Positions 1 to 31,869 of a DNA stretch of 31,869 nt are shown here, piece after piece. The position numbers and the translations under genes are program-made. Below the pieces are notes generated by a model. It ran no database searches. It saw only the letters and a program-made list of their open reading frames with translations, and was not told the DNA's origin. Each line of letters opens with the position of its first letter. Within the stretch, counting starts at the first letter, position 1. The stretch lies in IMG/VR virus record IMGVR_UViG_3300040971_000087, positions 1-31,869 of that record. The stretch is one strand, 5' to 3'. The stretch is from a virus (Duplodnaviria > Caudoviricetes).

Positions 1-59
1 CAGTTCCAACCTATGCACCTAGAACCAAACCACTAGTAAGATAAGAGGAGGGAAAAAGT

Positions 60-6572: not shown

Positions 6573-6589
6573 TTTTACGTTCCTAAATT

Positions 6590-6668
6590 GCTCCTGTATT
6601 GATTCCTTTTATATGTCAATGATTCATTATATGATTGACATTTATGGATTACAATACAGGAGCCTTTT
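6590..6668. terminator. Long imperfect hairpin at a convergent gene junction, probable + strand terminator
   Basis: GCTCCTGTATTG...CAATACAGGAGC 12-bp perfect outer arms, inner ATGTCAAT/ATTGACAT arms, followed by a T-run. Confidence 0.6.
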
Positions 6669-6676
6669 TAGCGCTT

Positions 6677-6700
6677 AAAAAAGACCCAGTTTCCTGGGTC
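6677..6700 (-). terminator. Intrinsic terminator of the leftward operon
   Basis: GACCCAG-tttc-CTGGGTC stem with an A6 run on its left (U-tract on - strand), just past the stop at 6709. Confidence 0.8.
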
Positions 6701-6708
6701 CTTGAGTA

Positions 6709-7170: not shown

Positions 7171-7221
7171 GGTATGCCTCCTAAGCATTATTCCTGTTTA
7201 ACAGGTTTATTTGATACTTTA

Positions 7222-7250
7222 ATTATATCAGAAGTTAACACGATTGTCAA
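7222..7250 (-). promoter_or_regulatory. Consensus sigmaA promoter with extended -10 and UP element
   Basis: TTGACA-17 nt-TATAAT preceded by TGA; A/T tracts upstream at 7255-7285. Confidence 0.9.
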
Positions 7251-7311
7251 CTTCTTTTGTTAAATTTTTTTAAAAAATTTTAATAATTGGGTACCGCCCA
7301 ACACGAGTGAA

Positions 7312-7599
7312 TTACAATGTTCCGTTCCTTATAGCAAGAGATTCTTCGACGTTTCTAGCAATCCCAGCTCTACCGCCAGCTGCTAGTATCTGGTCTATTC
7401 TATAGAGCTGTAGTTTCGTTGGTTTACCTGTGGGTGTTTTAACTTCGATGGCTACAAAGTGACCTTTCCAGCATCCAAGGATATCAGGGATACCTGCCAA
7501 CTGGAAAGCACCCCCATGAACCTTGAACCAAAAACCCCCTTCAGCTGATAGCCTGTCCATTATTTTCTCGACTATCAGCGTCTCAGGTTTCTTAGGCAT
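7312..7599 (-). CDS. VRR-NUC family nuclease (Holliday-junction-resolvase-like)
   Basis: E..I...I; KVHG; GIPD; AIEVK; TKLQ...I..I..AGG pattern. Confidence 0.9.
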   Translation of the reverse strand: MPKKPETLIVEKIMDRLSAEGGFWFKVHGGAFQLAGIPDILGCWKGHFVAIEVKTPTGKPTKLQLYRIDQILAAGGRAGIARNVEESLAIRNGTL

Positions 7600-8105
7600 T
7601 AGATCTCAATCTCTTCAATCTCGTCCTCTTCCACCACAGTAGAAGGTGACTCGAATACTTCCTCGTCTTCAACTTCAGCAGGAGCAGCCTTAGCAGTTCC
7701 TACACGTTTCCAACCAGCATCAGTTTTCTGTACTCTGAACAGTTCAGTAATGTTAGCATTAGGTTTCTCAACTCCGTCTTTGACGTAAGTTCCATGAGTT
7801 ACCACGATACCAACGATCTTACCTTTAACTTGGTCAGTGTCCAGAGTCATAGCTGACTTAGGAACGTTTAATCCACAGGCAATAAGGAAATCTCTGAGAG
7901 CGAACAGAGCCTTTGGTGAAAGTGTAGTGATATTGTTGATTTTCTTGCCTTTCTGTGGTCCAATACCTACGGTAAGTTCCCACTTAAGATATGGAGCTTT
8001 AGTTCCGGGTTCTTTAGTTACGCCTGTAACTTTACAGATGTACTCACCCTCTGGTAGTAATTCAAAACCTTCTTGCACGTTGCTCATGTCGACATTAAGT
8101 TTCAT
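7599..8105 (-). CDS. Phage single-stranded DNA-binding protein (DUF669-like)
   Basis: FELLPEGEY.C.V N-terminal motif, strongly acidic C-terminal tail, adjacent to the AAA annealing gene. Confidence 0.75.
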   Translation of the reverse strand: MKLNVDMSNVQEGFELLPEGEYICKVTGVTKEPGTKAPYLKWELTVGIGPQKGKKINNITTLSPKALFALRDFLIACGLNVPKSAMTLDTDQVKGKIVGIVVTHGTYVKDGVEKPNANITELFRVQKTDAGWKRVGTAKAAPAEVEDEEVFESPSTVVEEDEIEEIEI

Positions 8106-9007
8106 TATTTGGTTCCTCCTTTTTTGTAGTTTCCATCCATAATAAGTTTAAGAGCTGCATAGCTTGGATTGACCAGTGATGTTGGAGACTTAGCTCCAAT
8201 TGGAAGTCTAATCTTAGCCATATAAGTGGTGTTCGGTAGTACTCTCATACAGAATTTAACGATTGATTTTCCTTCAGCATCTTCTGAGTCCACAACATAG
8301 GTTCTGCCAATAACATCTACAGCTGCTCCTAAGATAGCTTTAACTGATGCTATAACCTGTGGGAATACACTAACTTCGTCAGAGTCTAGATCTTCATCAT
8401 TAGTTCGTTTTTCTTGAGCGATGAAAACTACATTCATATCCAGATTTCTAAACTCAATTACCCATTTCTTCATGAGTTGAGATAAGTTACCCCAGTCATG
8501 TTTGTTTGGCATGTCCATGTCTTTGTTTAGGTCATTATCAGCCTCCTTCTTCATTACAAATCTCATACCAATCTCCTGCAGAGTAGTAGCATTATCAATG
8601 ACTACTGTCTTGTAAGGATGATTGCCTGTCTTTAGGTACCAATAGGCCATAACAAACATTTCAAAGGTATCTAAGAATCTCTTCTTAACATTACCTTGCT
8701 CATGACCAATCATGGATCGAGTACCTTTCTCATTGATATCTAGAACCAGAATAGGTCCTGGGAATGTCGATGCAATGGTGTTTTTACCTGTACCATTCGG
8801 TCCATAGATCAGAGCTTTCATGTAATCTGCAGCTAAACTGATATCCTCAATTCCAGCTTCAAATTCTGAGAAATCCATGATGTTCATACCTATTGGAGAC
8901 TTTGGTGTAGCTACTTGAATGTCGTCCATATCATCCATCTCTACCTTGTCAGACTCAAAATCTAGGTCAATGTCTTCAATCAATGGATTCTTCTTCTCTG
9001 CTTTCAT
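8105..9007 (-). CDS. AAA_24 / Sak4-like P-loop ATPase (single-strand annealing recombinase)
   Basis: LIYGPNGTGKN Walker A, LDINEKG, TVVIDN Walker B, DWG, VVFIAQE. Confidence 0.85.
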   Translation of the reverse strand: MKAEKKNPLIEDIDLDFESDKVEMDDMDDIQVATPKSPIGMNIMDFSEFEAGIEDISLAADYMKALIYGPNGTGKNTIASTFPGPILVLDINEKGTRSMIGHEQGNVKKRFLDTFEMFVMAYWYLKTGNHPYKTVVIDNATTLQEIGMRFVMKKEADNDLNKDMDMPNKHDWGNLSQLMKKWVIEFRNLDMNVVFIAQEKRTNDEDLDSDEVSVFPQVIASVKAILGAAVDVIGRTYVVDSEDAEGKSIVKFCMRVLPNTTYMAKIRLPIGAKSPTSLVNPSYAALKLIMDGNYKKGGTK

Positions 9008-10034
9008 TCTCTTCCTCCTCCTCTTGTTTGTACAATATTTTTATCATAGAACTAGTGTCATGACCCATTAAGTCAGCCATGCATAAGTCCCTATAATCAC
9101 ATCTCGGTCTATCACAGGTCCAGTTGAGATTAGCTACCACATGTAGTGGAGATAAGGTCTGAATCTGAGTTCCTGTATTGACCATGTTCTGAAGAATGTT
9201 TCTTACCATAACTTTTGATTTAGCCATGTAATGTCTGATGAAGAATGTTGAGTCCTTAAGCTTTTCTTTCATATCGAGATAATCTTCAGGGTCATTACCG
9301 TGTGCTTTAACTGTAGCTGCATAAGTGTACCAATCACAGTCAATCTTACGTCTGGAGGTTTCACCTTTTTGGAGTTTCTCAGGAATAGTAGGAGGTTTTG
9401 TTTTGATGTAGTCAAAAATGATTCCTGCTATATCTTCCTTATTGTATCCCAGATAAGGAGCCAGTTGCTCTCCAACCCAAGTATACATGGCAGTCTGAGT
9501 GTCTGTCATTCTGAAAGTCTCAGACGGTGGAGCACTCTTCATGGTTTTATGTTCCCATATCCAGACCTTACCTGATTGGTCTCGAGTAATTTTGTCAATC
9601 TTTCCTGTCAATACAATTTTGGTTCCTGGGAGTCTAATCATAAAGTCTTGCTCAACTTGAATCACTTCGTGTAAAGCATCGATCTCTTTGTAAGTTTGAA
9701 AGTATGCTCTCATCATGCGGAATACTTCCATAGGTAGGTCTCCTAGTAAGGCTTTCTCTTCATCAAAAAGTTTATTATACTCAGTGTCTCTGAGAGTCTT
9801 AATAGTGTCAACCCAATTCTTACCAGAGTCATAGTCCTCAAGTACTTTATGAACCCAAGAGCCTTTTCTTAAGGGGACAGCTGTTCTTTTAGGTCTTAAC
9901 TTATCCTCATACTTGTACTTATACTTCATTTGACAAGTTGCCCAAGTTTTAGCTTTTGAGTTGGAGAGTTCTTGTAATCCTTCCTCTCCTTCAACTATCC
10001 CAATCTTAATTATCTTGCTCGATTGGTTTTTCAT
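8976..10034 (-). CDS. PD-(D/E)XK exonuclease (Cas4/AddB-like, Fe-S cysteines)
   Basis: LSNS...W..C..KY, GSWVH..LE, GKID, WEHKT, Q..MY, C-terminal C....CDYRDLC. Start moved to ATG 10034 (AAAGGAG RBS). Confidence 0.85.
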   Translation of the reverse strand: MKNQSSKIIKIGIVEGEEGLQELSNSKAKTWATCQMKYKYKYEDKLRPKRTAVPLRKGSWVHKVLEDYDSGKNWVDTIKTLRDTEYNKLFDEEKALLGDLPMEVFRMMRAYFQTYKEIDALHEVIQVEQDFMIRLPGTKIVLTGKIDKITRDQSGKVWIWEHKTMKSAPPSETFRMTDTQTAMYTWVGEQLAPYLGYNKEDIAGIIFDYIKTKPPTIPEKLQKGETSRRKIDCDWYTYAATVKAHGNDPEDYLDMKEKLKDSTFFIRHYMAKSKVMVRNILQNMVNTGTQIQTLSPLHVVANLNWTCDRPRCDYRDLCMADLMGHDTSSMIKILYKQEEEEENESREEESID

Positions 10035-10064
10035 GATTTCTCCTTTCATATATGTTATATATTA

Positions 10065-10093
10065 ATTATATCATACTTCTGATGAAATGTAAA
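10065..10093 (-). promoter_or_regulatory. sigmaA promoter for the recombination genes
   Basis: TTTACA-17-TATAAT with TG extended -10. Confidence 0.8.
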
Positions 10094-10106
10094 CTAAAAG
10101 ATTTAA

Positions 10107-10397
10107 TTAATTAGTTGAAACTTTCCAATCAAGGTTGAAATAGTTCTCCCTCCACTCATTTATGAGTCTCTCGTAGAACTCTTCTGTGGGATTGTCCCAG
10201 ACATAAAGCAAATTATCTCTAATATCCAGCAAGTGGATCTTAGCCAATCGTTTTCCCAGTAACCTACTTAATGTCTGATATGTGGTACTTGTAGTGACTC
10301 CATCATCCTCATCCTGAACTATCCAGACATATCGGATAACATTAGGAGCTTTGTTGATCTCACTTGCGTTAGCTCTGAATTTCACTGCTTTTGACAT
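10107..10397 (-). CDS. Hypothetical protein
   Basis: 96-aa ORF with AGGAGGTG RBS, in operon. Confidence 0.7.
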   Translation of the reverse strand: MSKAVKFRANASEINKAPNVIRYVWIVQDEDDGVTTSTTYQTLSRLLGKRLAKIHLLDIRDNLLYVWDNPTEEFYERLINEWRENYFNLDWKVSTN

Positions 10398-10408
10398 AAT
10401 ATCACCTC

Positions 10409-12910
10409 CTATCTAGGTGTAAACGGGAACTCTTCTCCAGGTAGCCAGTCTTTGGCTGAACCCCAATGAGTTCCTATCTTGCAATCCCCAGTGATTGGGA
10501 TCGTCGGAGTATATCCAAACCACTTAAGAAGTCTGGAAGGGTCATCAAATACTTCCTTTAATTTGTGAGGCCAGTAGTCCAATTTATCATTTCTAATCAT
10601 GTAGTACTGAGCGTCATGTACTGAACCCACAGGTTTAATAGTTTCCAACTTAGGATCTTCAGGTAAAATGTGGTCTAATACCATTTCAATAAAGCCAGCT
10701 AATACATAGTCACTACCAAATCCTTGAACAGGTGAGTTAATTGCTTCACGTTCAGCAGCTGATCTCATACCATCATCACTTGAGTAAATATTAGGTAGGT
10801 GTCTTTCTCTTCCTATTGGTGAAACCACGTAGCCCATCATCTTAACTAACTTCTTCATCTTAAAATGCCAAGGACCTAAATCAGGATATAGTTCAAAGAA
10901 TCTCCTACGATAATCCTTAGCTTCTTTGTCAGTTAAGCGTACTCCATATTTTTCCCAGGCATATTGCTTGAATTTCTTCCAGCCCATGCCATATACAAAT
11001 CCAAAATTGACTGCCTTAGCTTTCTTTCTCTCATCATATGTGACATCTTCAGGTAGCTTCCCAGTTATTGCTGCAGCAGTCGCAGTATGAATGTCTCCTC
11101 CCATTGCAAATATTGAGAGCATCTTTCTCTCGTTTGCCACAATAGCAACAACCCTTAGCTCAATCTGAGAACCGTCAATTTCAAAGAACGACCATCCTGG
11201 AGGAGCACCTATCAATCCTCGGATAAAATCATCACGAGGTACCTGATGAGCTCCATCCTCACCTGAGAGTCTGCCTGTAACTGTCCCATGTAACTTAAAG
11301 GTAGGGTGTATCATATTGTTATCATCTACTTTGTGGGACCAAGGTTCAAGGTAGGTAGATCTGTATTTAGCCCACTTCCTATATTCCATGATACCATCCA
11401 TCATTGGGTGGTCAAACTCAGCATGAAGTTCCAGTAACACAGCCTCAGCAGTACTTGGTTTTCCTGAGTCAGTCAATTGTATAATAGGGAAACCCAACCC
11501 ATCATCCTGAAATAGTAACTTACCAAGTTGTTGAGGACTATTCCAATTGAACCCAGTTTTAAGTTGCTTTTTGTTGAGGTTGTTCTCAGCCCATCCTTTA
11601 GGTATTAAGCTATTAAGAAGCTTCAATGACTTCTCAATCTCCTCATCACATTGTATCTTAGCCTGGGCTATTTTGTCTGGGTCAATCCACATACCTTCTT
11701 CTTCAATCAGGGTAAATACTTTACTACCTTTCTCAAGTAAATGCTTATAAATCCTAGCTAATCTTGGTTTTTGAAGTAGCATGTCTTTGTATACAGGATA
11801 GTTATGCCAAGAATATAATGCGTCCAAAGCATTGTACTTCATCATCCTCCCTAAATCCATCCTGTGGAATTGTTTTACTACCTCAATAATGTCGTCATAT
11901 ACAGGGTCATACTTCTTAGGCCAATGAATATCCTTATCGTAATCAGGAGCATCAAAATTTACTGCAGCCTGATACTTTAGCCCATGTGGTATGTTCTCAT
12001 CTAAAATATAAGACATTAACATATTATCTGGCCCAAAGTTTACATTGGTATTATATTTCTTTCTCATCCATTTAACATCATACTTCCAGTTATTACCAAC
12101 CCACTTAATGGATTCAAAGAATGGTTTAATTAGGTTAACTATTGTTTGGGTCTGGTTTCTCCACGGAGACTGAGGATGAACCATAGGAATTGTCCACAGG
12201 TTGTATCCATCGACTGTCAAAGCCATTGTCATGACCGAGGTCTCAGGTCTCCAGTAATCAAAGGTAGTAGTCTCTAAATCTAATGCACCGTATATATTTT
12301 TATCATTTTTAACAGCGTCTTTAAGGTGTCTAATCATTCCTGTAAGGACTTCTTTCGTTGTCACGTAATGTATAACATATTGCAATTGATGAGATTTTCT
12401 TCCAGCCATGAAATTAGCTACCTTTTGCATGTCTGTATTGAACTCATGAGTGTATTTAGGGATTCGTAGTACTGACCCTGGACTGTAGGTAGCTATGACT
12501 GGGATTCCACCTTTACTTACTAACTCTTTTCCTCGGTAACTACTTATACCTGATCTACCTGTAACTGAGTTTAGTGCAATATTACCAAAGGTGAAGATCA
12601 GATCAGGTTTAACTGTCCTGATCTCCTCCTCTAAATATGGAGCACAATTCTTGATATGGTCTTTAGTTAGTTTCTCAGTTACCCTACATTTCACAGCAAA
12701 AGTGATGTAGTAATCTTTTATCCCATACTGTGCTAATGTGTTCTTTAGAAAAGACCCGCTGTTGTCACCTGCTATAACTCCCTCGAAGTCGTCAGTCAAT
12801 GATGGCATCTCAAGTACAATCATCAACCTGGCTTTTTTATACTCAGGAGTCAGTTGTATACTTTGGGGTTGTTCTACTAAATTACAGAGGTTGCAACTGT
12901 CTAACATCAA
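10409..12910 (-). CDS. polA: Family A DNA polymerase with N-terminal family-4 UDG-like domain and 3'-5' exonuclease
   Basis: UDG-like: CxxC, AVKCR, CAPYLEEEI..VKP..I..FG..A. Exo: DLET, KYD, YNALD. Pol: TVTGRLS, motif A DGSQIELR, motif B RKKAKAVNFGFVYG, motif C VHDA. Confidence 0.95.
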   Translation of the reverse strand: MMLDSCNLCNLVEQPQSIQLTPEYKKARLMIVLEMPSLTDDFEGVIAGDNSGSFLKNTLAQYGIKDYYITFAVKCRVTEKLTKDHIKNCAPYLEEEIRTVKPDLIFTFGNIALNSVTGRSGISSYRGKELVSKGGIPVIATYSPGSVLRIPKYTHEFNTDMQKVANFMAGRKSHQLQYVIHYVTTKEVLTGMIRHLKDAVKNDKNIYGALDLETTTFDYWRPETSVMTMALTVDGYNLWTIPMVHPQSPWRNQTQTIVNLIKPFFESIKWVGNNWKYDVKWMRKKYNTNVNFGPDNMLMSYILDENIPHGLKYQAAVNFDAPDYDKDIHWPKKYDPVYDDIIEVVKQFHRMDLGRMMKYNALDALYSWHNYPVYKDMLLQKPRLARIYKHLLEKGSKVFTLIEEEGMWIDPDKIAQAKIQCDEEIEKSLKLLNSLIPKGWAENNLNKKQLKTGFNWNSPQQLGKLLFQDDGLGFPIIQLTDSGKPSTAEAVLLELHAEFDHPMMDGIMEYRKWAKYRSTYLEPWSHKVDDNNMIHPTFKLHGTVTGRLSGEDGAHQVPRDDFIRGLIGAPPGWSFFEIDGSQIELRVVAIVANERKMLSIFAMGGDIHTATAAAITGKLPEDVTYDERKKAKAVNFGFVYGMGWKKFKQYAWEKYGVRLTDKEAKDYRRRFFELYPDLGPWHFKMKKLVKMMGYVVSPIGRERHLPNIYSSDDGMRSAAEREAINSPVQGFGSDYVLAGFIEMVLDHILPEDPKLETIKPVGSVHDAQYYMIRNDKLDYWPHKLKEVFDDPSRLLKWFGYTPTIPITGDCKIGTHWGSAKDWLPGEEFPFTPR

Positions 12911-13319
12911 TACCAGCTCCTATCAGTTTGTCTACTCTTGCTTTCACGTCATTCCCATAGACCTTGCCATAATAAAGTATTTTTGGTCTATGAATCGAGC
13001 CACAGATATATCGGATACAGTTATCACAAGGTAGGTGAGTAACATACATTATAGTGTCAGGATATCTGTAGTGCGAGATTTTAGATAGAAACTCTAGTGC
13101 ATTGATCTCAGCGTGTATAGTTCTTACACAATGACCATCCACCATAGAGTGACCAATATCATCACAATGAGGCATCCCATGTGGTGAGCCATTGTATCCT
13201 GCAGAAATTAATCTTCCACCTACAGTTATAATAGCTCCTACCTGAGCTCTGTCACAAGTGGATCTCTTTGCATAAAGTTTTGCTAACTCCATGTAGAAGT
13301 GATCTCTATCCATTCTCAT
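12882..13319 (-). CDS. dCMP deaminase
   Basis: RSTC.RAQVGA, GYNG, HAE, PCxxC zinc motifs. Confidence 0.93.
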   Translation of the reverse strand: MRMDRDHFYMELAKLYAKRSTCDRAQVGAIITVGGRLISAGYNGSPHGMPHCDDIGHSMVDGHCVRTIHAEINALEFLSKISHYRYPDTIMYVTHLPCDNCIRYICGSIHRPKILYYGKVYGNDVKARVDKLIGAGIDVRQLQPL

Positions 13320-14274
13320 GCTCTAACTCCTCTCTTATTCTTACAAATCGAGGGTGTCTTAGATTTCCATCAGATGTCCTCTCCATGAACTCCACTTCCA
13401 TGACTCTTCCAATATACTCCTCTTTTATTCCGTGGTTACCGTCACTTAACATCTCCCTGAGCTCATCAGTAATGCCTGAGCAGGAACCGACATTATCACC
13501 ATCCCTAAACTCAATTGAACCGAACCATCCTTTAACCCAAGGTTTAGTGTGCCTGGATATGTCTATGGTTCTAGTTACTGGGTCAGTATAGTGCTTATCA
13601 GGTAAGATTGAGCCAGTAATGATAACATCTACAGTATCTTTTTTCTTATACTTATACCAAGTGTGAGCAGGTTTAGCTGCTCTTTTGTGAGTACCAAACT
13701 GATAGAGAGATGCTTTATTTTTGAATACCATTCCCTCCATTCCTTTGGCTAACAGAGCATATAATAATGCTTCTTTTCTTGGTCCTGTCTCCACGTGAGG
13801 AACATACTCAACAGGGATGAATGGAAGATGATCTACTAATTTTCTGAGCATATCATCTCTCCTTATATTAGTCAGGTTGTATATTGCCTCATGTCGATAG
13901 AACAGAAAATCAAAAACTCTAAATACAATTGTATCAGGAACTGGAACCATCGAGCGATAGTTCAATATTCCAGCTACCTCAGCAGAAGTCATACTAGGTT
14001 CATATAACTCTCCATCTAAGACAGTTCCAGCCAAAGATCTAATTTTGTATTTAGTAAAGTGGGGGAGCCTATGGGAGATGTCAATTGGAATAGTTGGGTC
14101 AGCTTTGGTAGATCCTCTAGTAGTTATAACCATCTCACCGTCCTCGAGAAACTGTAATATTCCCCTAACCCCATCAATCTTCTCCTGACCAAAGTAAGAG
14201 TCATCTTCGATTAGTTTCTCTAGGGCTTCTTCACTTTCAACCTTTTTACAGCCCATAGGCCAAATGATTCTCAT
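13306..14274 (-). CDS. ATP-dependent DNA ligase
   Basis: EKIDGVR (motif I), LDGE, VFD, EGMVFK, KYK, LRHPRF. Confidence 0.93.
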   Translation of the reverse strand: MRIIWPMGCKKVESEEALEKLIEDDSYFGQEKIDGVRGILQFLEDGEMVITTRGSTKADPTIPIDISHRLPHFTKYKIRSLAGTVLDGELYEPSMTSAEVAGILNYRSMVPVPDTIVFRVFDFLFYRHEAIYNLTNIRRDDMLRKLVDHLPFIPVEYVPHVETGPRKEALLYALLAKGMEGMVFKNKASLYQFGTHKRAAKPAHTWYKYKKKDTVDVIITGSILPDKHYTDPVTRTIDISRHTKPWVKGWFGSIEFRDGDNVGSCSGITDELREMLSDGNHGIKEEYIGRVMEVEFMERTSDGNLRHPRFVRIREELEHENG

Positions 14275-14954
14275 TAAAATACTCCTTCCACATCCTTCTG
14301 ATAAATATGAAGACTGTTGATAGAATGGGTAAAATACCCAGGTTTATAGCCAGTCACATTAGCTATATATTGCATTAACTTCACACCCAAGTAAACATCA
14401 TTTTGGAAGTGTGTTACAAAGTCGCAAGATCTCATCATATAGGTAACATTAAGTTGTCCACCTCTAAGTTGAAACAGATAACCCAGTGAGCAAGGTACTC
14501 TGTATCGAGAACCCATTCTCTCATTATCAATATTAGGATCCCAGATTGAGAGATACAGTTGACGACTGTCAGGATACTGATGAAGCTCAGTGATTATCCT
14601 GTGGAGTTGACTTCCTATTCTTTCTGAGTAAGTGTATGCAAATTTCCCATCATGGAGAAACTCTAACCATACATCAGCTCTGGAGTGATAAGCCTCACCT
14701 GGATTAGTTCCAAACCCTTGAATCCTCTCAGAGAACTCAATGTCAGCCCAAGGTTGTGTAGGATTTAATTGATGTAATGAACCCACAGGATCTGTGACAG
14801 TGTAGGAATAGTTTTGTAACTCCAGTGTGGCATACTCAGGGTCATCTCCAATGTACTTATCTTGCATTGACTGAGTATGAACACTAACTCCCATCTCAGC
14901 TAGATCTCTTTTGATCTCATTAAGGGCTTCATCAAAATTAGTAAAAATTCTCAT
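14274..14954 (-). CDS. Thymidylate-synthase-fold enzyme with dCMP-type signature (putative dCMP hydroxymethylase/methylase)
   Basis: YTYSER, DSRQ..LSIWDP, catalytic PC, MRSCDFVTHFQND (Asp at the position of E. coli ThyA N177 / T4 gp42 D179), SLHIY. Confidence 0.85.
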   Translation of the reverse strand: MRIFTNFDEALNEIKRDLAEMGVSVHTQSMQDKYIGDDPEYATLELQNYSYTVTDPVGSLHQLNPTQPWADIEFSERIQGFGTNPGEAYHSRADVWLEFLHDGKFAYTYSERIGSQLHRIITELHQYPDSRQLYLSIWDPNIDNERMGSRYRVPCSLGYLFQLRGGQLNVTYMMRSCDFVTHFQNDVYLGVKLMQYIANVTGYKPGYFTHSINSLHIYQKDVEGVF

Positions 14955-15169
14955 TTAGCTGTCCCCTTTCTTATAAAGTGATAAATAATATCCACTTCTT
15001 CAGTGACCAGGTTACCACCTCTGATAACTCTCTTCGGTGAAGTAGTTATTTGCCAAGGAGTGTAACCCAGCTCGATAAACTTATTAACATCCTCTGCCGA
15101 CAAATTGTAGCCTCTGGTGTAGATAGGTAGTGGTTGCTCTTCAGGTGTATCAATCTTCTTTTCACTCAT
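14951..15169 (-). CDS. Small hypothetical protein inside the nucleotide-modification cluster
   Basis: ATG 15169 with GGAG RBS; overlaps both neighbours. Confidence 0.65.
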   Translation of the reverse strand: MSEKKIDTPEEQPLPIYTRGYNLSAEDVNKFIELGYTPWQITTSPKRVIRGGNLVTEEVDIIYHFIRKGTAK

Positions 15170-16040
15170 CTCCGTCTCCTCCAAACATTTCTAACTCATC
15201 ACAAGATAACTTATCCATGATGTGGTTGATATCGTACCCAGGTAAAGTAAGTGACTCTGTGGGTACGTAGTGTCCTTCCCTTTCTCCAATCAATACCTCA
15301 TAAGCTTTCATAACTCTTTCCTGAGTTCTAAAATTGGAGTAGTTCTTGTCAACAAATACCTTCTTATACCTCTTAATAGTTGCAACTTGCCAGTGAGGTA
15401 GTCCTACAGTTTCAGCTTCAATAAGTTCTCCCTCTTCATTAAAGAAGTCTTTGAGCCATTGCTCATTACCTTCAAAAGCTAAGAAGAATGGTGTTCCTGT
15501 AATAGACTGATATGAACTTGTCATATTCCACCTTAAGGTCATATAGTCAGGATTGAAGCCAACCTTGTCACCTATCTCTCTCAGCAATACATAGATAAAG
15601 ATTAAGTCAGCAAACCATCTTGTGGTTACTTCACTTGCTCTGGTATTGACTACTGCATGCCATTGTCCTTGATGAAAGCCAACTGATAGATTTAGTAAAC
15701 AGGCTCCAGAAGCATTATCTCGAGCATTAAATTGCATTGCAATATCAGGAACATACTTATTCTTGTGCTTTTTCTGACTATTGTAATGATTGAGTCTTTG
15801 AACCATCTTACCTAGTTCCACAGGATTGAGATACAATCTGATAAGCATTCTCCACTTGGCAGGAGCATAATTCATATCATGTAAATGAAGGTCACAAGCA
15901 GCTGACTCCATGAATATTGAGTCTTGAAATGAGTGAGCTGTTACTCCTCCTCTTATATACTGAAATGCATTATTCCAAAACAGGTAGTGATTGAACTTAA
16001 TATAGGCATCCCTCATGTCTTTCGCTTTTAAATTAAACAT
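15162..16040 (-). CDS. Divergent second thymidylate-synthase-fold protein
   Basis: N-terminus resembles TS/hydroxymethylase starts. GACLLNLSV...VVNTRASEVTTRWFAD parallels PC...YMMRSCD.......D in order and spacing. Confidence 0.55.
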   Translation of the reverse strand: MFNLKAKDMRDAYIKFNHYLFWNNAFQYIRGGVTAHSFQDSIFMESAACDLHLHDMNYAPAKWRMLIRLYLNPVELGKMVQRLNHYNSQKKHKNKYVPDIAMQFNARDNASGACLLNLSVGFHQGQWHAVVNTRASEVTTRWFADLIFIYVLLREIGDKVGFNPDYMTLRWNMTSSYQSITGTPFFLAFEGNEQWLKDFFNEEGELIEAETVGLPHWQVATIKRYKKVFVDKNYSNFRTQERVMKAYEVLIGEREGHYVPTESLTLPGYDINHIMDKLSCDELEMFGGDGDE

Positions 16041-16041
16041 A

Positions 16042-16662
16042 TTAGTACCCCGATCTTTGTCTGAATTGATTGACCTGATTCTTCCTCATATACATGTGGA
16101 ATAGTGACTCTGCTGTGAACCCTCCAGCCTTACATAAGTCAATGAAAGACTGAAACTCGATTTCGGTAAGTTTCTGAAACTTATTAATGTCAGTAAGCAT
16201 GTGAGTTGTCTTCCAAGGCTTATTCTTAAGTGTATTACATGCTAATCCAGCAGCAACTAAATAATCAGTAACTGCCGATTTGATAGACTCAGCAGGATTG
16301 CCCATTGAGTTGTCAAAATACCATTGCAATGGCTTGTTTGGGTTGTAACCTGCAATAAGCATTTTCTCAACTACAAAGTGAAATGCATCAGCTAGCTCCT
16401 CCTCAAAATGGAGAATATCCGTCTTAAGAATAGCTTCCATAGCCTCAGCAACTTCCTCCATAGCTCTCCATGTCATATCCTTAAGTCTTGCTTGAACGAA
16501 TCTGTCGTGGACATCACCTGGTATTCTATCTGACTGAAGTAGTCCATTCTGTTTCTCGATGTGTAGATACTTCTCAGCCAACTCATGCTGATACTGGAAG
16601 ATGTCCTCTAATGCATGTTTCTCATCATACGGTATCTTACTCTTAAAATCATTTACGTTCAT
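16042..16662 (-). CDS. All-alpha (MazG/dimeric dUTPase family) dNTP pyrophosphatase, possibly dCTPase/dUTPase
   Basis: EEVAEA..A, EELADAFHF, KPWK, C-terminal Y.RKN.VN.FRQ.SGY. Confidence 0.85.
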   Translation of the reverse strand: MNVNDFKSKIPYDEKHALEDIFQYQHELAEKYLHIEKQNGLLQSDRIPGDVHDRFVQARLKDMTWRAMEEVAEAMEAILKTDILHFEEELADAFHFVVEKMLIAGYNPNKPLQWYFDNSMGNPAESIKSAVTDYLVAAGLACNTLKNKPWKTTHMLTDINKFQKLTEIEFQSFIDLCKAGGFTAESLFHMYMRKNQVNQFRQRSGY

Positions 16663-17179
16663 TCTTCAATACCTCCTGGGCTTTTAGGTACATTTTAACC
16701 TCAAAGTCAATCTGCTCATAGTATGGGTCTTCTTCAATCGAGTATCCTACGGTTAACTCCCTAAATGGGAATCCTTGAATTAACCTAAAATACCTGATCT
16801 GTATTTCAGATACCTGAGAGATATCTAAATACTGTTTTCTTACATTATAGGTGGACTCAATGTCACCTGGCATTCTGTGACAAAGGATGATAAGTGGTTT
16901 CTGCTCAGCGATTAATCCATCTACAACCTTGATCTGATGTTTACTGATACCAATTTTACTTCTTACCACAGGACCATAAACAAGTTCGTCTAGGTAGAAT
17001 CTGTCGGCAATGAGTTCATAGTCTCGATCCAATACTCCTACTACCCATCGATACCAATCATCATAGTCTTTAGGCGGGAGTTCATGATACCTATCAATGA
17101 TAGGAATATGAAACTTGTTGCTTAGGTGGGTAGCTAGTGTAGTCTTACCACTATTGTCCACCCCAGTAATTATAATCAT
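16649..17179 (-). CDS. Deoxynucleoside monophosphate (thymidylate-kinase-like) kinase
   Basis: IIITGVDNSGKTT P-loop, IADRF...ELVYG. Confidence 0.85.
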   Translation of the reverse strand: MIIITGVDNSGKTTLATHLSNKFHIPIIDRYHELPPKDYDDWYRWVVGVLDRDYELIADRFYLDELVYGPVVRSKIGISKHQIKVVDGLIAEQKPLIILCHRMPGDIESTYNVRKQYLDISQVSEIQIRYFRLIQGFPFRELTVGYSIEEDPYYEQIDFEVKMYLKAQEVLKNERK

Positions 17180-21598: not shown

Positions 21599-21649
21599 TT
21601 TTTTGTCCTCCCAGTCAATTTTTAATCAATGAATTTATTGATTTAATTA

Positions 21650-21736
21650 ATTATATCATAAAATGTTACCTTTGAATACTGTATTTTATCAAAATTTGAT
21701 AAAATGGTTTATTTGGGTTTTAATACATGATATAAT
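21650..21736. promoter_or_regulatory. Divergent promoter pair with a central perfect palindrome
   Basis: Leftward TATTCA-17-TATAAT (21678-21650) and rightward TTTATT-17-TATAAT (21708-21736), both TG-extended; ATTTTATCAAA-A-TTTGATAAAAT at 21683-21705. Confidence 0.75.
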
Positions 21737-21779
21737 GTAATTGTAATAATATGTCATTATTAAAAGGAGGTGAAATGAG

Positions 21780-25655: not shown

Positions 25656-26040
25656 TGTATAAAAGTTTGTATGGTTTTTGAACATACATTGTATCTATGT
25701 AAATTGTATAATCATGATTCTTCATGTAGAACGTTGAAAAATCATATCTTTGACACGATTTGTATCTATGTAAAAGCCCCTGGTATAAATGGACGACCCA
25801 CATTATTCAACACTATACAAACTTATTTTGTATAGGAATGTATCGTGTTGAATAATTATTTGATTCTATGATGCTCAAAGATATGTAATTTCAACGTTTG
25901 TATAGATGTAAACTATGTTATTGTATAGGCATGTATGGTCATGTATAGTTTTAACCGCATCTATACATGCAAATACATCAATGCATATAATATGCATGAT
26001 GTATGCATGTAATGATTAATTCATTTTGGAAAGGAAGTTT
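25656..26040. repeat. AT-rich non-coding region with direct and nested inverted repeats (candidate replication origin)
   Basis: TTGTATCTATGTAAA at 25689 and 25760 (variant at 25898); inverted pairs 25730-25753/25875-25898 and 25802-25819/25839-25856. Confidence 0.6.
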
Positions 26041-26042
26041 AT

Positions 26043-27097: not shown

Positions 27098-27487
27098 TCA
27101 GTTGATTTCAATATACGAACCTTGCTCGAGACACCAGTTCACGACCTCTAGGATTGCATAAACGAAGGAACCTGCATAATCATAGCAAGTGTCGTCGCCT
27201 AACCATCCATCATTGTAATCCAACAGTTCTTGGTAATACAGTGGGGCAGTAAGTGTATCGTCCTCAATGTATGCCATGTATTCGTCAATCTCATCTGTTG
27301 CGAATTGAATGTCAAAGCCCTCATTCAATATGATTGTCCCACCTGTATACTCCATATTTAATATTTCCAATGCGTGACAACAATCTGACTCACCGAGGAA
27401 ATATTGAAGATCATCATCTTCCTCAAAATCGGTTATGCCAGCCAATATCATTTGTTCCACTGTAGGTAATGTCAATTGTAATCTCAT
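27098..27487 (-). CDS. Highly acidic early protein
   Basis: 129 aa, about 29 D/E versus 1 K/R by hand count; GAGGAGG RBS. Confidence 0.75.
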   Translation of the reverse strand: MRLQLTLPTVEQMILAGITDFEEDDDLQYFLGESDCCHALEILNMEYTGGTIILNEGFDIQFATDEIDEYMAYIEDDTLTAPLYYQELLDYNDGWLGDDTCYDYAGSFVYAILEVVNWCLEQGSYIEIN

Positions 27488-27511
27488 CGGTTTACCTCCT
27501 CATTTATAATG

Positions 27512-27529
27512 GAGGGAGTTGCCTCCCTC
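27512..27529 (-). terminator. GC-rich intergenic hairpin
   Basis: GAGGGAG-ttgc-CTCCCTC between early genes; weak U-tract. Confidence 0.55.
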
Positions 27530-27535
27530 ATTTGT

Positions 27536-27763
27536 TTACCAACTTTGTGTTTCGCCGACAACCCAATCAAAATCATTAGGTACATCGGTTGAACCATCCA
27601 TATCAATTTCATCATTATTGATGAGTGTCTCAGCCCATTGATAAAATTGACCCATTTCAAACATACGTTGCGGGCTCAATAACATGATTGGGCCATGACC
27701 GAATTGCATCATTTCATCAATGTCAGTGAAGGCATTGATTATGTCAACATTAGGCAATCTCAT
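27536..27763 (-). CDS. Small acidic early protein
   Basis: 75 aa, about 14 D/E versus 2 R; GGAGG RBS. Confidence 0.7.
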   Translation of the reverse strand: MRLPNVDIINAFTDIDEMMQFGHGPIMLLSPQRMFEMGQFYQWAETLINNDEIDMDGSTDVPNDFDWVVGETQSW

Positions 27764-27792
27764 TTGTGTTCCTCCATTTCATAATTGTGCAT

Positions 27793-27823
27793 AAAAAAAA
27801 ATGAGGGGGGTGATGTTCCCCCC
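27793..27823 (-). terminator. Intrinsic terminator after the first early gene
   Basis: G6/C6 stem with a long A-run on the left (U-tract on - strand). Confidence 0.7.
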
Positions 27824-27829
27824 AATTTG

Positions 27830-28207
27830 TCATTTTGCAATTACATATTTGGTTGCAAAATATGACAAAATGTCATTTAATATCGGGTCATTTAATGTCC
27901 AGGTCCAATTTGATTTGTATTCATGACCCATTGTTTCGGCGAAATGTTTACGTAAGTGGCGTCGGATTGTTTTGCCCCCATCATTCAAATTGAATAATTT
28001 GTCAAGGGTGGCGGGTGTTACATTTGAATCAGTTGGCAATTTTGCAATAATTGGAGTGAGGTCAATTACATTTGATTTCGGTTCGGGTGTTGCATTTGAT
28101 TTCGGTTTTGATTTTGATTTGGGTGCGGTTTTTTTATTCAATTTGTCATTCTCAATTTTGTCAACTGCCTCATTCATTTCAAACCCATTCATCACATTTG
28201 ATTTCAT
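27830..28207 (-). CDS. First early gene, putative DNA-binding protein with PKS-repeat linker
   Basis: ATG 28207 with GGAGG RBS; C-terminal half resembles the 6709..7170 product. Confidence 0.7.
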   Translation of the reverse strand: MKSNVMNGFEMNEAVDKIENDKLNKKTAPKSKSKPKSNATPEPKSNVIDLTPIIAKLPTDSNVTPATLDKLFNLNDGGKTIRRHLRKHFAETMGHEYKSNWTWTLNDPILNDILSYFATKYVIAK

Positions 28208-28275
28208 TTGATACCTCCATTTAAAATTGTACATGCATACAATATCACGATTGATATTGATTTGGTTTATAATTC

Positions 28276-28304
28276 ATTATATCATGAATTGAATGACATG
28301 TCAA
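28276..28304 (-). promoter_or_regulatory. Strong consensus sigmaA early promoter with UP element
   Basis: TTGACA-17-TATAAT, TG-extended, AT tracts upstream. Confidence 0.9.
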
Positions 28305-28360
28305 TAAAAAAATTAAATTATTTTGTTTAATTTGTAAATAATTTTATGCATTGATTATGC

Positions 28361-28494
28361 ATTGCATACAATGTATAAATGAATCATGAATATATTGTAT
28401 GCAATTGGGTTGCATGCAAATGACATGCGCCCAATCATATTGTATGCAATTCAAATATCATGCATGACACCCACGCAATTAAATTGTATGCAAT
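28361..28494. repeat. 12-bp repeat ATTGTATGCAAT, three direct copies and one inverted
   Basis: Direct at 28394, 28439, 28483 (45 and 44 bp period); inverted ATTGCATACAAT at 28361. Confidence 0.85.
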
Positions 28495-28703
28495 GTATAT
28501 AACATGCATGTATACATTGTAATCATTTCATCATTGCACCCGTGACATATTGACCCCGGTATGAGCCCCATGGGGGTGGGGGTTTGCATTATATAGTGAT
28601 AGCACTTCACAAGCATCGACGCACGCTCTCACAACGACTACCCCATGTGCCCAATACCCCATCCCCAGTTTTATATAGAGAATCGAAATATTTTTTAAAA
28701 GTA

Positions 28704-28732
28704 TTGACAAGTGAGCGTGGATTTGATATAAT
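28704..28732 (+). promoter_or_regulatory. Consensus sigmaA promoter for the packaging/structural operon
   Basis: TTGACA-17-TATAAT, TG-extended. Confidence 0.85.
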
Positions 28733-28796
28733 GAACATGTAAAATAGACGGTTTTTTTCAAAAACTAGTCTATATTTTTTTAGAGAGGAGGAGAAA

Positions 28797-29183
28797 ATGG
28801 CTGAAATACCTGATAGACTCAAGGATAAGATGACCTTAATTTTAGAAGAGTTTGCCAAAACCGGTGTCATAGGCATTGCTGTGGACCTGGCTGGCGTTCG
28901 GAGAAAAGACCATTACCAGTGGTTGAAGGACTATGAAGACTACAAAGAGATGTATGACATAGTTAAAGATCGATTCGTTGATGGACTCGAAAGGGTAGCT
29001 ATCGAGAGAGCCAAAGAAAAATCTGACTCTCTGCTACAGATGATGCTTAAGGCCCACAGAAGAGAGGTCTATGGCGATACCTCTGAGGTAAACGTCAAGG
29101 GCTCTAATGCTGGTGGGATTCAGTTGGTTTTCGCCAGTGGTATGCTGAGTGAAGAAGAGAAGAAAATTCTCAGTAAGGAGTAA
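28797..29183 (+). CDS. terS: Terminase small subunit
   Basis: HTH-like N-terminus (G.I..A..LAGV.R...Y.W), SD.LL..MLKA.R.E.Y motif; directly upstream of terL. Confidence 0.8.
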   Translation: MAEIPDRLKDKMTLILEEFAKTGVIGIAVDLAGVRRKDHYQWLKDYEDYKEMYDIVKDRFVDGLERVAIERAKEKSDSLLQMMLKAHRREVYGDTSEVNVKGSNAGGIQLVFASGMLSEEEKKILSKE

Positions 29184-29186
29184 ATT

Positions 29187-30611
29187 ATGAGTAGGAGGCG
29201 TAGGTTAAGTCCACCTAGGAAACTAGCTACTTATGACCCTCACCCTCACCAGGTAGTCTTTCATGAGGATGGTCATAAATACCGGGCTTTAGTGTCTGGT
29301 GTTGGTGCTGGAAAGACGAGGATGGGTGTTGAGGAGGTTATTAAGTGGACTCAGTTGTATCCTGGGAGTCTTGGTGTAATTGGAAGACTTACTTCTAAGG
29401 CATTGAGAGAGACTACTCAGAGAAGATTTTTTGAGGTATGTCCTCCTGAACTTATTGAACATTATAACAAGTCTGAGGAACACTTATGGATTAAGACCAA
29501 TGCTGAGGATGAGGATGGCTGGCCTGTATTTAGTGAGATACTATTCTTTCACCTAGATGAGCCTGGACCGCTTGGATCTTTGGACATTAGCTATTTCTGG
29601 ATAGATGAGGCGCATGAGCCTGATGGTGCGGCTGTACCGGAGGAAACGTTCCAGATGCTGACTGCTAGACTTCGGCATCCTGTGGGTCCTTGGAGAGGGG
29701 TCGTGACCTCGAACTCTGGGGGTAAAAACTGGGTGTGGAGACGATTCTTTGATAGGCCGGCGACTGAGTACATTGGCTGGACGGTGCCTACTGAGGCTAA
29801 TGCTAAGTATTTGCCGCCTGGTTATGTTGAGGAGCTGAGACGTAATAACCCGGAGACTTGGGTGAAAAGATTCTTGGAGGCGTCGTTTGAGGCTTTCGAG
29901 GGTCAGATATTTGTGGACTTTGACGAGGAGTTGCACACTTATAGAACTGGTGAGGTTGAGTTGTCGCCTTTCTGGGACTATGGCGTAGGGTTTGACTTTG
30001 GTGTCACAGCCCCTACCGCTGCTGAATACGGTGCTGTAGATAGGGATGATAACATCTATATATTCGACGAGGACTATGAGCCTGACGCCGATATAAGCAG
30101 ATTCGCAGCTGGAGTGAAGCGGAGGGGCTTTGATATGGTGTGTGCTGACCCTTCGACAGTGAATAAGGGACCTAATAAGAAGAGTCCTGCTGACCTGTAC
30201 AATGAGGAGCATTTGTACTTAGTGCCTGCTCCGAATGACGTGGACTATTTTATTAGCTTATTTATTAAACTGTTGAGGATGCGCAATAAGGATGGTAGTG
30301 CTAAGATTAGGATAAATAGGGATAAGTGTAAACACTTGATTGAGCAGATTAAATCGGCTGCTTGGGACCCTAAATGTCTGTCGAATAAGACACTGGATAA
30401 AATGAAGAGAGTTGAGGACCATGCCTTGGATGCTTTTAAGTATTTCTTGAATACTTATGGTATGAACCCTGGCATGCTGAATCCTGTGGACCCAGGAGCT
30501 AAGAAGACCCGGAGAACTTGGGAGCATGAGAGCTTCGAGGAGGATGAGGATTTTGACGACCCTGACTATGAGTTCCAACAAATTAAGATGGAGGTGGAAG
30601 GTCTATGGTAA
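29187..30611 (+). CDS. terL: Terminase large subunit
   Basis: PHPHQ, GVGAGKT Walker A, FWIDEA Walker B, TSN coupling motif, GFDFG, ADPS, DHALDA.KY nuclease motifs. Confidence 0.95.
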   Translation: MSRRRRLSPPRKLATYDPHPHQVVFHEDGHKYRALVSGVGAGKTRMGVEEVIKWTQLYPGSLGVIGRLTSKALRETTQRRFFEVCPPELIEHYNKSEEHLWIKTNAEDEDGWPVFSEILFFHLDEPGPLGSLDISYFWIDEAHEPDGAAVPEETFQMLTARLRHPVGPWRGVVTSNSGGKNWVWRRFFDRPATEYIGWTVPTEANAKYLPPGYVEELRRNNPETWVKRFLEASFEAFEGQIFVDFDEELHTYRTGEVELSPFWDYGVGFDFGVTAPTAAEYGAVDRDDNIYIFDEDYEPDADISRFAAGVKRRGFDMVCADPSTVNKGPNKKSPADLYNEEHLYLVPAPNDVDYFISLFIKLLRMRNKDGSAKIRINRDKCKHLIEQIKSAAWDPKCLSNKTLDKMKRVEDHALDAFKYFLNTYGMNPGMLNPVDPGAKKTRRTWEHESFEEDEDFDDPDYEFQQIKMEVEGLW

Positions 30612-30754
30612 CATACTTGATTGTAGTGACTATGCTAATATTCTCTGGGCTATGTTACTATGCCGGAACTAAAGCAGTTAAGACTAAGGTTGAGGTTATG
30701 GGGATTGAGGACTTCATAATGGACCCTGTAAGTCCGGGTGATGAGGATGAGTAA
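30605..30754 (+). CDS. 49-aa membrane-anchored peptide between terL and portal (not in ORF track)
   Basis: MVTYLIVVTMLIFSGLCYYAGTKAVKTKVEVMGIEDFIMDPVSPGDEDE; GGAGGTGG upstream; overlaps both neighbours. Confidence 0.6.
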   Translation: MVTYLIVVTMLIFSGLCYYAGTKAVKTKVEVMGIEDFIMDPVSPGDEDE

Positions 30755-31869
30755 ATTATTTAATAAGAATAAGGATGAGTATGAGACTCCGGAGAAGGAA
30801 GTTAAATTACTGGACAAAATTAATGTTAGGCTGAGAGCTTCGCTGGAGCAGAGAGACACGCTGGGTATGCCGTCGATCTGGGCTCAAAATGAGAAGTATT
30901 GGGCTGGTGAGGTTAACTTGCCGGTTGAGGATACTGACATTGGCAGTGAGACGAATATTATTCAGCCTATTATTGAGAGCCAGGTTGCTGAGCTTGTGGA
31001 CGGACAGAATGATATCTTGGTCAAGGGTACTGGCCCGTCGGATCAGCCTTTTGCTAAGGACGTTAACCACATTCTTAACTTTGTCTGGCGTAAAAATAAG
31101 ATGGTCGTTAAATTTGATGAGGCGGAGAGAGACAGACTTAACTTGGGCAGTGTTACTTGGAAGGTTTACTGGGACCCTGACGCTATGAGAGGTAGAGGCT
31201 TACCTGTAATGGCTCCTGTGGCCATTGACCTATTCTTGCCTGATGCTAGAGTGACTAACCCGAGGGAGCTTCAGAAGGGTGACTATTGTATAGAGCTAAT
31301 CCCAATGACTACCAGACAGCTTCGTAAACAGTTTGGTGCTAAGGGTAAATTGGTTCAGGGCAATGGCTTAGTCATGTCTAATGAGGCCAGAGTCTTTGAC
31401 GACTCATCCAATAATAATCCTGTTATGAGAGACCAGGTGATGGTCATTGAATATTGGGAGAAGGATGATGATGATAAACTCAGACGAGTGTATTGTACTG
31501 AGGATGTTATCTTGGCTGATAGCTTTGATGAGGGACATGAGAGTTTCTATGCTCATGGTAAATTCCCTTATGTTACTATTCCTTGTTATTTGAGAAAAGG
31601 CAAATACTGGGGTATGAGTGACACTGAGCAATTGATTCCTATCCAAGATCTGATTAATGACTTGGACGACCAGATAGTTACTAACGCTAGAATGACTGGT
31701 AACAATCAGACTGTTGTTGCTACGAGCTCTGGCATTAACCTTAAGAAATGGACCAATAAGCCTGGGTTGAAAATTCCGAGCAAGGATGTTCAGGGATTTA
31801 AACAGGTGGTTCCGTATCATATTCCTGCTTATATACCACAGAGACGCGACAAGGCATTTCAGGAGTCTG
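30747..31869 (+). CDS. Portal protein, P22-like (truncated by window end; not in ORF track)
   Basis: Frame from ATG 30747 reads MSKLFNK...; NIIQPIIESQVA.L, G..TWKVYWD, HGKFPYV, WG.S..E.LIPIQD.IN; follows terL. Confidence 0.85.
   Translation, partial: MSKLFNKNKDEYETPEKEVKLLDKINVRLRASLEQRDTLGMPSIWAQNEKYWAGEVNLPVEDTDIGSETNIIQPIIESQVAELVDGQNDILVKGTGPSDQPFAKDVNHILNFVWRKNKMVVKFDEAERDRLNLGSVTWKVYWDPDAMRGRGLPVMAPVAIDLFLPDARVTNPRELQKGDYCIELIPMTTRQLRKQFGAKGKLVQGNGLVMSNEARVFDDSSNNNPVMRDQVMVIEYWEKDDDDKLRRVYCTEDVILADSFDEGHESFYAHGKFPYVTIPCYLRKGKYWGMSDTEQLIPIQDLINDLDDQIVTNARMTGNNQTVVATSSGINLKKWTNKPGLKIPSKDVQGFKQVVPYHIPAYIPQRRDKAFQES

Follow-up and report, generated by a model that had tools for sequence, protein, structure and literature searches.

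It is known already that restriction sites of 4-8 bp are avoided in the phage DNA that enters a cell first. According to the accessible part of PMC10644984, T5 and BF23 resist restriction only when the sites are absent from their first-step DNA; their first-entering DNA, which carries strong host-type promoters, must lack the targets of host defence, a feature that the phage described here would share. T7 offers a second comparison, as its first gene (0.3, Ocr) is annotated as anti-restriction. In phages with modified cytosine (Xp12 with 5mC, T4 with hmC, RB69 and DLP3 with 5-hydroxy-C) a thymidylate synthase (TS) homologue has Asp at the N177 site and is accompanied by a deaminase, a pyrophosphatase and a kinase. 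M6, ViI and phiW-14 show that a two-base context on phage DNA can be recognised, as described in the accessible part of PMC6449724.

We analysed a window of 31,869 nt, the whole stretch of DNA available, which makes up most of a phage genome (complete relatives are ~46 kb) and holds a giant protein gene, replication genes and then terS, terL and the portal at its right (Table 1). Upstream of terS lies a real, selected and family-wide ban on the two-base step AG/CT, on what is probably the entry leader. Similar to T5, three small leftward genes stand behind a 12/12 sigma-70-type consensus site, a predicted promoter. Whereas T5 avoids sites of 5-8 bp over 10 kb, in which the longest AG/CT gap is 74 nt, the phage here drops the two-base step entirely over 350-750 nt and does so at an amino-acid cost. 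It also differs from T5 in that no A1/A2 homologues were detected and genes 1-3 matched no PHROG, Pfam or NCBIfam family. The short-tailed-phage architecture, giant virion protein, short leader and small first genes are shared with T7, and the acidic genes 2-3 may be set beside Ocr. In contrast, AG/CT is not depleted in the first 6 kb of T7 (overall 1.10, longest gap 47 nt), and gene 1 here is basic, not an acidic DNA mimic, with no Ocr homology detected. The likeness to the modified-cytosine phages extends to the TS Asp and the accompanying enzymes, but the phage here has Arg at L143, Asp at D169 and a second TS-like gene. In M6, ViI and phiW-14 the context is TG/TC on hmU, whereas TG is enriched here; local avoidance is not described in the part of that source available, and the hmU DNA kinase and aGPT-PPlase families were undetected among 37 window proteins and 30 proteins of relatives. 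No gap was present in T7 (6 kb), SPO1 (14 kb), Xp12 (44 kb fetched) or API480 (whole), and the literature outside subscription papers, part of it accessible in portions, yielded no description of a dinucleotide ban in entry DNA.

Table 1. Features of the window discussed in the text
Feature	Position	Strand	Remarks
Giant protein	60-6572	+	2170 aa; likely virion or ejection protein
Predicted cytosine-modification cassette	12882-17179	-	Beside DNA polymerase A (10409-12910)
dCMP deaminase (cassette)	12882-13319
DNA ligase (cassette)
TS1 (cassette)	14274-14954
TS2 (cassette)	15162-16040		TS-like paralogue
dUTPase_2/MazG pyrophosphatase (cassette)	16042-16662
Nucleotide kinase (cassette)	16649-17179
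Gene 3	27098-27487	-	129 aa; very acidic (29 D/E, 1 K/R); candidate DNA mimic; gradient ends
Gene 2	27536-27763	-	75 aa; acidic (14 D/E, 2 K/R); candidate DNA mimic
Intrinsic-terminator-like hairpin	27805-27823	-	After gene 1
Gene 1	27830-28207	-	125 aa; net basic; small helical domain; DGGKTIRRHLRK motif
Shine-Dalgarno GGAGG of gene 1	28214-28218	-	AG within closes the gap at left
AG/CT-free leader	28217-28563	.	Likely terminal, possibly a direct terminal repeat (from count and depth)
Promoter-like site	28276-28304	-	12/12 (TTGACA-17-TATAAT, extended -10); upstream of gene 1
Boundary motif	28553-28569	+	ACCCCGGTATG(AG/GA)CCCC; candidate terminase cut site; carries first AG past the gap
Second promoter-like site	28704-28732	+	12/12; upstream of terS, outside the ban
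terS, terL, P22/SU10-like portal	28797-31868	+	terS 28797-29183; terL 29187-30611; portal 30738-end

Absence of AG and CT from the leader

An earlier note on this DNA, made by reading the letters, had reported no AG or CT at 28217-28563, about 11 at 27781-28563 and 2-5 per 60-nt line at 27541-27780. Exact counting on both strands gave 0, 11 and 11, respectively. Over 20,000 base shuffles of 28217-28563 the mean was 35.4 (sd 4.6) and the minimum 17, and shuffles of 27781-28563 gave a mean of 85.2 and a minimum of 56. Genome odds ratios fitted to the local composition predicted 40.9 AG/CT in the gap. The gap measures 349 nt between the CT at 28215 and the AG at 28564, and the next-longest gap within the window is 97 nt. 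The line at 121-180, previously taken as typical, does hold 12 but starts the densest 200-nt window; the total of 4454 AG/CT in 31,869 nt amounts to a mean of ~8.4 per 60 nt.

The depletion decreases inward. Upstream of the -35 box (28305-28563, 259 nt) there are 0 AG/CT against 27.1 expected. The observed/expected ratio is 0.00 there, 0.11 for the promoter and leader, 0.22 for gene 1, 0.37 for gene 2, 0.75 for gene 3 and 1.03 for the next two genes, bearing out the reported extension into coding sequence. The abrupt stop placed at about 28564 is a sharp edge, but 28570-28796, to the right of the boundary, is still slightly low (0.82) before terS (1.32); the rest of the window stands at ~1.20. 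Two AT-rich, promoter-bearing intergenic regions elsewhere, 21599-21779 and 25656-26042, are moderately low in AG/CT (0.48 and 0.54).

The A-N(1-5)-G ratios in the gap are 1.01-1.10, so the loss is restricted to the adjacent step. GA/TC stands at 0.91, AA/TT steps likewise show no depletion, and CA/TG is enriched (2.12). All 8 trinucleotide contexts are depleted. Where the earlier note had proposed an AG/CT-containing motif, AG/CT is indeed avoided, but a longer motif was rejected as the target: every CT context is depleted in strong leaders (0.05-0.40), and the least depleted, CTC and CCT, belong mostly to GGAGG ribosome sites. The target is the dinucleotide itself. A cause at the mRNA level was also rejected, since AG and CT are both lost and the untranscribed DNA is the cleanest; the ban holds on both strands, in coding and non-coding DNA. 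Primase sites are CT-containing triplets, and their avoidance was considered, but there seemed no ground for expecting it to affect a terminus on both strands.

The gap has a GC content of 29% and abundant short TGCAT/ATGCA repeats, as might be expected if it were a by-product of AT-rich repeats, of mutational bias at a genome end, of a DNA-structure need or of an assembly chimera. Such an origin is very improbable and already largely refuted. The shuffle minimum of 17 and the undepleted GA/TC and AA/TT steps speak against it, as do the codons, leaders and alleles presented below.

Codon and amino acid choice in genes 1-3

The 29 window genes of <500 aa were compared with expectation under genome codon usage. 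Gene 1 holds 9 AG/CT against 44.6±4.5, with a minimum of 1 permitted by its protein; gene 2 holds 10 against 20.7±2.9 and gene 3 holds 35 against 49.6±4.2. The other 26 genes gave z values of -1.1 to +3.0. In gene 1, 17 of 17 lysines are encoded by AAA, 8 of 8 serines by TCA and all arginines by CGN, while AGA is the preferred arginine codon of the genome. Where relatives have the conserved codons CCT, GCA and ACA, the window has CCC, GCC and ACC. The swaps run from CCT to CCC and from AGA to CGN and never from C to T, and for this reason C-to-T mutational decay was rejected; they likewise oppose a mutational by-product, as does the effect on amino acid pairs. AG-forcing dipeptides ([KEQ] followed by [ADEGV]) occur once in gene 1 against 5.7 expected. 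Because both codon choice and dipeptide use avoid the step, the loss of AG/CT is a matter of selection rather than composition. The earlier note had argued for selection and named three outcomes that would refute it, none of which was observed: neither composition nor codon shuffles reproduce the gap, related phages show the same depletion, and contigs bridge both edges (in the source sample only).

The gene-1 protein has 14 D/E and 20 K/R. Its family holds the same position in relatives and comprises 42 homologues and, at 50% identity, 90 clusters; besides its own cluster, gene 3 has one homologue at 50%. The gene-1 fold gave no Foldseek match at E≤0.001, with a best VIA Z of 4.3 and Atlas matches <0.9. 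By their charge alone, genes 2 and 3 are candidate DNA mimics. A gene at 6709-7188 appears by eye to be gene-1-like in its C-terminal part; it has promoter-like DNA of its own and no ban (1.29). A further copy resembling gene 1 lies at L060:319-612.

Conservation of the trough in relatives

In fixed 250-nt bins upstream of terS the AG/CT ratio fell to minima of 0.00 (L059), 0.03 (L060), 0.05 (L061), 0.11 (L069), 0.17 (L071), 0.23 (L076), 0.30 (L058), 0.43 (L056) and 0.44 (L073), and it was 0.28-0.50 to the left of the boundary motif in G001, G002, G003, L004 and L018. Near-copies among these relatives are L004/L005/L056, L007/L012, L071/L076 and L060/L080, and L057, L016 and L070 were left out as too short. 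The trough was present in each relative in which the gene-1 cassette was found upstream of terS. No trough was seen in terS relatives with other genes upstream (L001, L011, L014, L017, L055 and L079) or in distant terS relatives at 35-45% (L062, L082-L085 and L087). The first five of the former are close terS/terL relatives with non-cassette genes directly upstream of terS.

Leader zones chosen by eye had AG/CT ratios of 0.00-0.63. The leaders are mutually unalignable except for G001/G003 (88% identical) and L071/L073 (stretches of 32-105 nt); smaller matches link L071 and L073 with the window (31 nt each) and L059 with L061 (17 nt). That unalignable leaders all lack the step is difficult to reconcile with a by-product. 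Among 10 dinucleotide classes, the most depleted 400-nt window was that of AG/CT at this site in the window, G003, G001 and G010 (z of -6.5, -4.6, -4.5 and -5.2, respectively). For the 13 remaining records of the 17 scanned, the minimum AG z was -2.2 to -3.7; it was -2.2 to -3.6 in ten TS1-bearing virus records other than the cultured phages. In 145 fetched loci, 1.74 Mb including overlaps, each of the 8 longest AG/CT gaps belongs to a leader of the family.

In L060 and L069 the leader breaks off sharply at its inner edge, and a ~250-nt block dense in AG/CT comes next (observed/expected 1.82 and 1.96). The blocks (L060:2700-2950 and L069:40-280) hold 50-51 AG/CT per 200 nt, where four long genomes reach maxima of 39-47; they are mutually unalignable and lie upstream of the next leftward genes. 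The L069 block has stops in all frames and short AGCT-rich repeats, and that of L060 lies under one doubtful open frame. Such a block is possibly an entry brake, a binding array or a decoy. The window itself has neither a dense block nor a sharp inner edge and shows the gradient instead. In L069 (300-760) gene 1 is inverted and points toward the presumed end, and the ban spans the same distance from terS. The ban thus tracks position and not the direction of transcription.

Short islands of 58-73% GC were noticed in four distant TS1-bearing phages of 47-50% GC (G015:62000-62308, G016:43500-44500, G017:46000-47000 and G018:8500-9500). They have lower AG/CT and CC and higher CG; wherever terL could be placed, the island lies ~2 kb upstream of it. 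Neither a prophage nor a host turned up in scans of species genomes, and scans with TS2 or gene 1 as single proteins found no viral contigs.

Variation of the ban among lineages

The strength of the ban differs between lineages. In the gene-1 core G003 has 20 AG/CT against 23.4 expected, and the window 6 against 23.3. AG-forcing dipeptides are nearly absent from 12 of 50 gene-1 proteins, which count as banned, whereas the other 38 count as unbanned. A low count at p≤0.05 was seen in 16 of the best 75 of 90 gene-1 cluster representatives, as compared with 0 of 17 TS2 controls. A gene-1 tree, built on 83 columns only and with long branches among its deepest banned rows, needs 5 on/off changes, and well-supported branches make 2 of these unavoidable. 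Across four long genomes the modification cassette stays the same while ban strength differs. A gene distinguishing strong from weak lineages was sought and none was evident, the window being the sole long genome with a strong ban.

This switching bears on whether the phage avoids a weapon of its own. A leader product or injected enzyme might attack or coat CT/AG of the host, so that entered phage DNA must lack the target; gene 1, which is conserved, net basic, small and helical and is present in the family leaders examined, would suit such a role. T5 may be a parallel, since its pre-early genes destroy host DNA and how it spares its own is stated to be unclear in the accessible part of PMC10644984, and its first-step DNA is mildly AG/CT-poor. 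We nevertheless regard self-avoidance as quite improbable. Six unbanned gene-1 proteins (P0002-P0007), 64-72% identical to that of the window, carry 10-14 AG-forcing dipeptides, and by eye none of the residues in the conserved domain distinguishes on members from off members. Moreover, a fully C-modified genome, as in T4, could let self be told from host without any sequence avoidance. The earlier note had offered two candidates, a host defence and a phage modification kept off the entry region, and of these the host defence fits the graded, on/off strength better than a phage mark.

Boundary motif, probable genome end and depth

The boundary motif stands 230 nt upstream of terS. Its exact pattern was found in 6 related loci and variants in L061, L071, L076 and L073, while L059, L060 and L069 lack it; 4 of 10 pattern matches were dropped as coming from unrelated viruses. 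The motif is similar to the final bases in the record of Gordonia phage Gibbous, which we take to be the cohesive end of Gibbous. A conserved motif at the right edge likely marks the genome end. Phages that start packaging at terS load the DNA immediately upstream of it last and eject it first, and for this reason the leader would be the entry leader. That it is the first-entering end, as the earlier note assumed, we infer from its position, the motif, the promoter with its leftward genes and the raised depth. No RNA datasets containing the window DNA were listed.

Depth was read at contig level from assembled unitigs in four runs of one sample, labelled a hydrocarbon metagenome and possibly the one from which the window came. 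Positions 28214-28578 form a separate 365-nt unitig with a depth ~1.7-fold or more above its flanks in all four runs: summed depths were 53.5, 65.7, 69.4 and 69.9, and the flanks, in the same order, 31.5/30.8, 33.4/20.6, 22.7/33.1 and 40.2/40.2. The raised depth fits a short terminal repeat, short of proof. A separate unitig with an alternative allele of 315 nt in the same sample could be taken as a sign of misassembly. Because both 30-nt flanks are common to the two alleles, the edges are not a chimera.

Predicted cytosine-modification cassette and giant protein

The cassette is conserved in G001, G003 and G010. D186 of TS1, which all 4 family sequences share, lines up with the ThyA Asn, so that the N177 site is Asp, and Arg152 occupies the L143 site, aligned with the Leu before x-P-C. 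TS1 lacks the Asp/Glu at the L143 site that marks T4-type dCMP hydroxymethylases, and it lacks D169N, the mark of 5-hydroxy-dCMP synthases, as its RSCD keeps the Asp. Judged by the signature residues given in the accessible parts of PMC13326640 and bioRxiv 10.1101/2024.12.05.627091, TS1 is predicted to act on dCMP and to be neither of the hydroxymethylase nor of the hydroxylase type. The linked dCMP deaminase, dNTP pyrophosphatase and dNMP kinase that characterize modified-cytosine phages are all present. The phage is thus predicted from sequence to carry a substitute for C, probably 5-methyl-C or one of its derivatives, 5-methyl-C being the simplest guess.

A tandem pair of TS-fold genes in the order kinase-pyrophosphatase-TS2-TS1-(deaminase)-polymerase A occurs across phages of many hosts (window 14274-16040, Muddy 46/47, Serbin 50/51, Gibbous 42/43, PMBT14, Zuko 75/76 and CPD4 74/75). 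TS2 keeps the Cys and R-x-S-E; it had no tblastn match in cultured phages and a weak HMM match in CPD4. We found no report in the literature on the base chemistry of the cultured cassette phages. The gap is absent from the DNA fetched for Muddy (right 33 kb), Serbin (28 of 43 kb), Gibbous (16 of 46 kb), PMBT14 (whole), Zuko (27 of 82 kb) and CPD4 (50 of 53 kb), a comparison that covers this DNA and in which the entry ends of Serbin, PMBT14 and CPD4 are not assigned. The first 500 nt from the right end of Muddy stand at 0.69, equalled by one internal bin. The cassette alone was rejected as the cause, because cultured phages with the same gene order show no gap in the DNA fetched; it is not sufficient.

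The giant protein has a weakly GNAT-like domain, encoded at 2679-3488 (model pLDDT 52). Most of the top Foldseek rows are GNAT acetyltransferases, with a best E of 0.028 and none ≤0.001. From this model it is, besides TS2, the only candidate for a DNA-marking enzyme, and it is also found in weak-ban relatives. The giant protein is modular: the G003 copy (L042:150-9395), of 3082 aa, has an ART-PolyVal ADP-ribosyltransferase domain missing from that of the window, and the weakly GNAT-like domain is in both.

These genes raise the question of a mark made by the phage itself. CT/AG on virion DNA might be marked, for example by TS2 in a second, context-specific step on modified C or by acylation through the GNAT-like domain; marked DNA would pass ejection or host RNA polymerase poorly, the leader would have to stay unmarked, and the dense blocks would brake or stop entry until a leader product releases it. 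The unalignable dense blocks at the inner edge in L060 and L069, upstream of leftward genes, agree with this, and so do the predicted C-modifying cassette with its unexplained second TS-fold protein, the weak GNAT-fold hint and the hypermodification in a TG/TC dinucleotide context in M6, ViI and phiW-14 (PMC6449724, accessible part). Low AG/CT in other promoter regions (0.48 and 0.54) would be expected from a mark that hinders promoters. The genome-wide AG/CT ratio of ~1.2 could be counted here as well, but SPO1 is enriched too (1.21). We consider a mark of this kind unlikely, although it is the main rival to a host factor. The cassette and the GNAT-like domain are common to strong-ban and weak-ban relatives, with gene 1 of G003 barely depleted; no methyltransferase, glycosyltransferase or hmU-kinase family was found among 37 window proteins and 30 proteins of G003 and G010; cultured cassette phages have no gap in the DNA fetched; and the window lacks a dense block.

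Discussion

The explanation that we prefer, though we would put it as about evenly poised between right and wrong, is that a factor of the host recognises CT/AG, possibly as modified C before T, on the first-entering DNA until the leader genes neutralise it. The motif at 28553-28569 would be the genome end that is packaged last and ejected first, and the gradient would reflect an exposure time that falls with distance from the entering end. The reader would be an enzyme of the host, with a modification-dependent nuclease or glycosylase recognising modified C before T as a plausible candidate. Such a reader is plausible because the phage is predicted to replace C, which would make a two-base target affordable to the host. 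Modification-dependent nucleases have specificities of 2-4 bp (PMC7461809, accessible part), and defence glycosylases target modified phage bases, with no sequence context given in the portion of bioRxiv 10.1101/2025.10.29.685425 available. Gene 1 and the acidic genes 2-3 are the candidates for counter-defence, and the strength of the ban may follow how often each lineage meets the host factor. Literature searches identified no host, defence gene or CT/AG-specific enzyme.

An exposure of this kind accounts for the cleanness of the untranscribed end, for the gradient and the sharp outer edge, and for the switching among lineages under a constant gene set. That the DNA upstream of the promoter is the cleanest is predicted by exposure and not by a pure block of transcription. 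As compared with it, a mark made by the phage does better on the dense blocks and the low promoter regions and worse on the switching. The dense blocks at the inner edge of L060 and L069 are poorly explained by a destructive host enzyme, and the basic nature of gene 1, unlike an Ocr-type mimic, also counts against a host factor neutralised by leader genes.

When a two-base step is banned completely, at a cost in both codons and amino acids, and the ban comes and goes among relatives, an unnamed enzyme of unusually short specificity is indicated. From sequence alone the ban also shows where the entry leader and the candidates for counter-defence lie, and even protein sequence reveals it. A wider proposal is that a widespread, undescribed reader of CT/AG governs phage entry, that unrelated phages purge the step from the DNA that enters before any protein is made, and that some lineages of this family brake or gauge entry with dense blocks. 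We hold this tentatively and are somewhat inclined to doubt it; if true, it would mean a new two-base anti-phage system or a new sequence-coded control of genome ejection.

Part of this can be tested in a laboratory strain, owing to a mild shift in T5. In T5 (NC_005859, L142) the AG/CT ratio is 0.79 in 1-10,200 and 1.13 in 10.2-14 kb and 60-100 kb. At codon junctions, AG/CT was counted 187 times against 251.9±10.7 in 13 first-step genes and 1108 times against 932±20 in 15 later genes. First-step DNA also has CG of 1.31 and GC of 1.52, against 0.79 and 1.13 later, and GA and AC are lower as well. The dinucleotide values of E. coli resemble this first-step signature, and the T5 shift may be a host-like signature. 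Being far milder than the loss in the phage here and accompanied by other dinucleotide shifts, it gives weaker support to a host factor that reads CT/AG on entry DNA. The dinucleotide switch of T5 falls at its injection stop signal.
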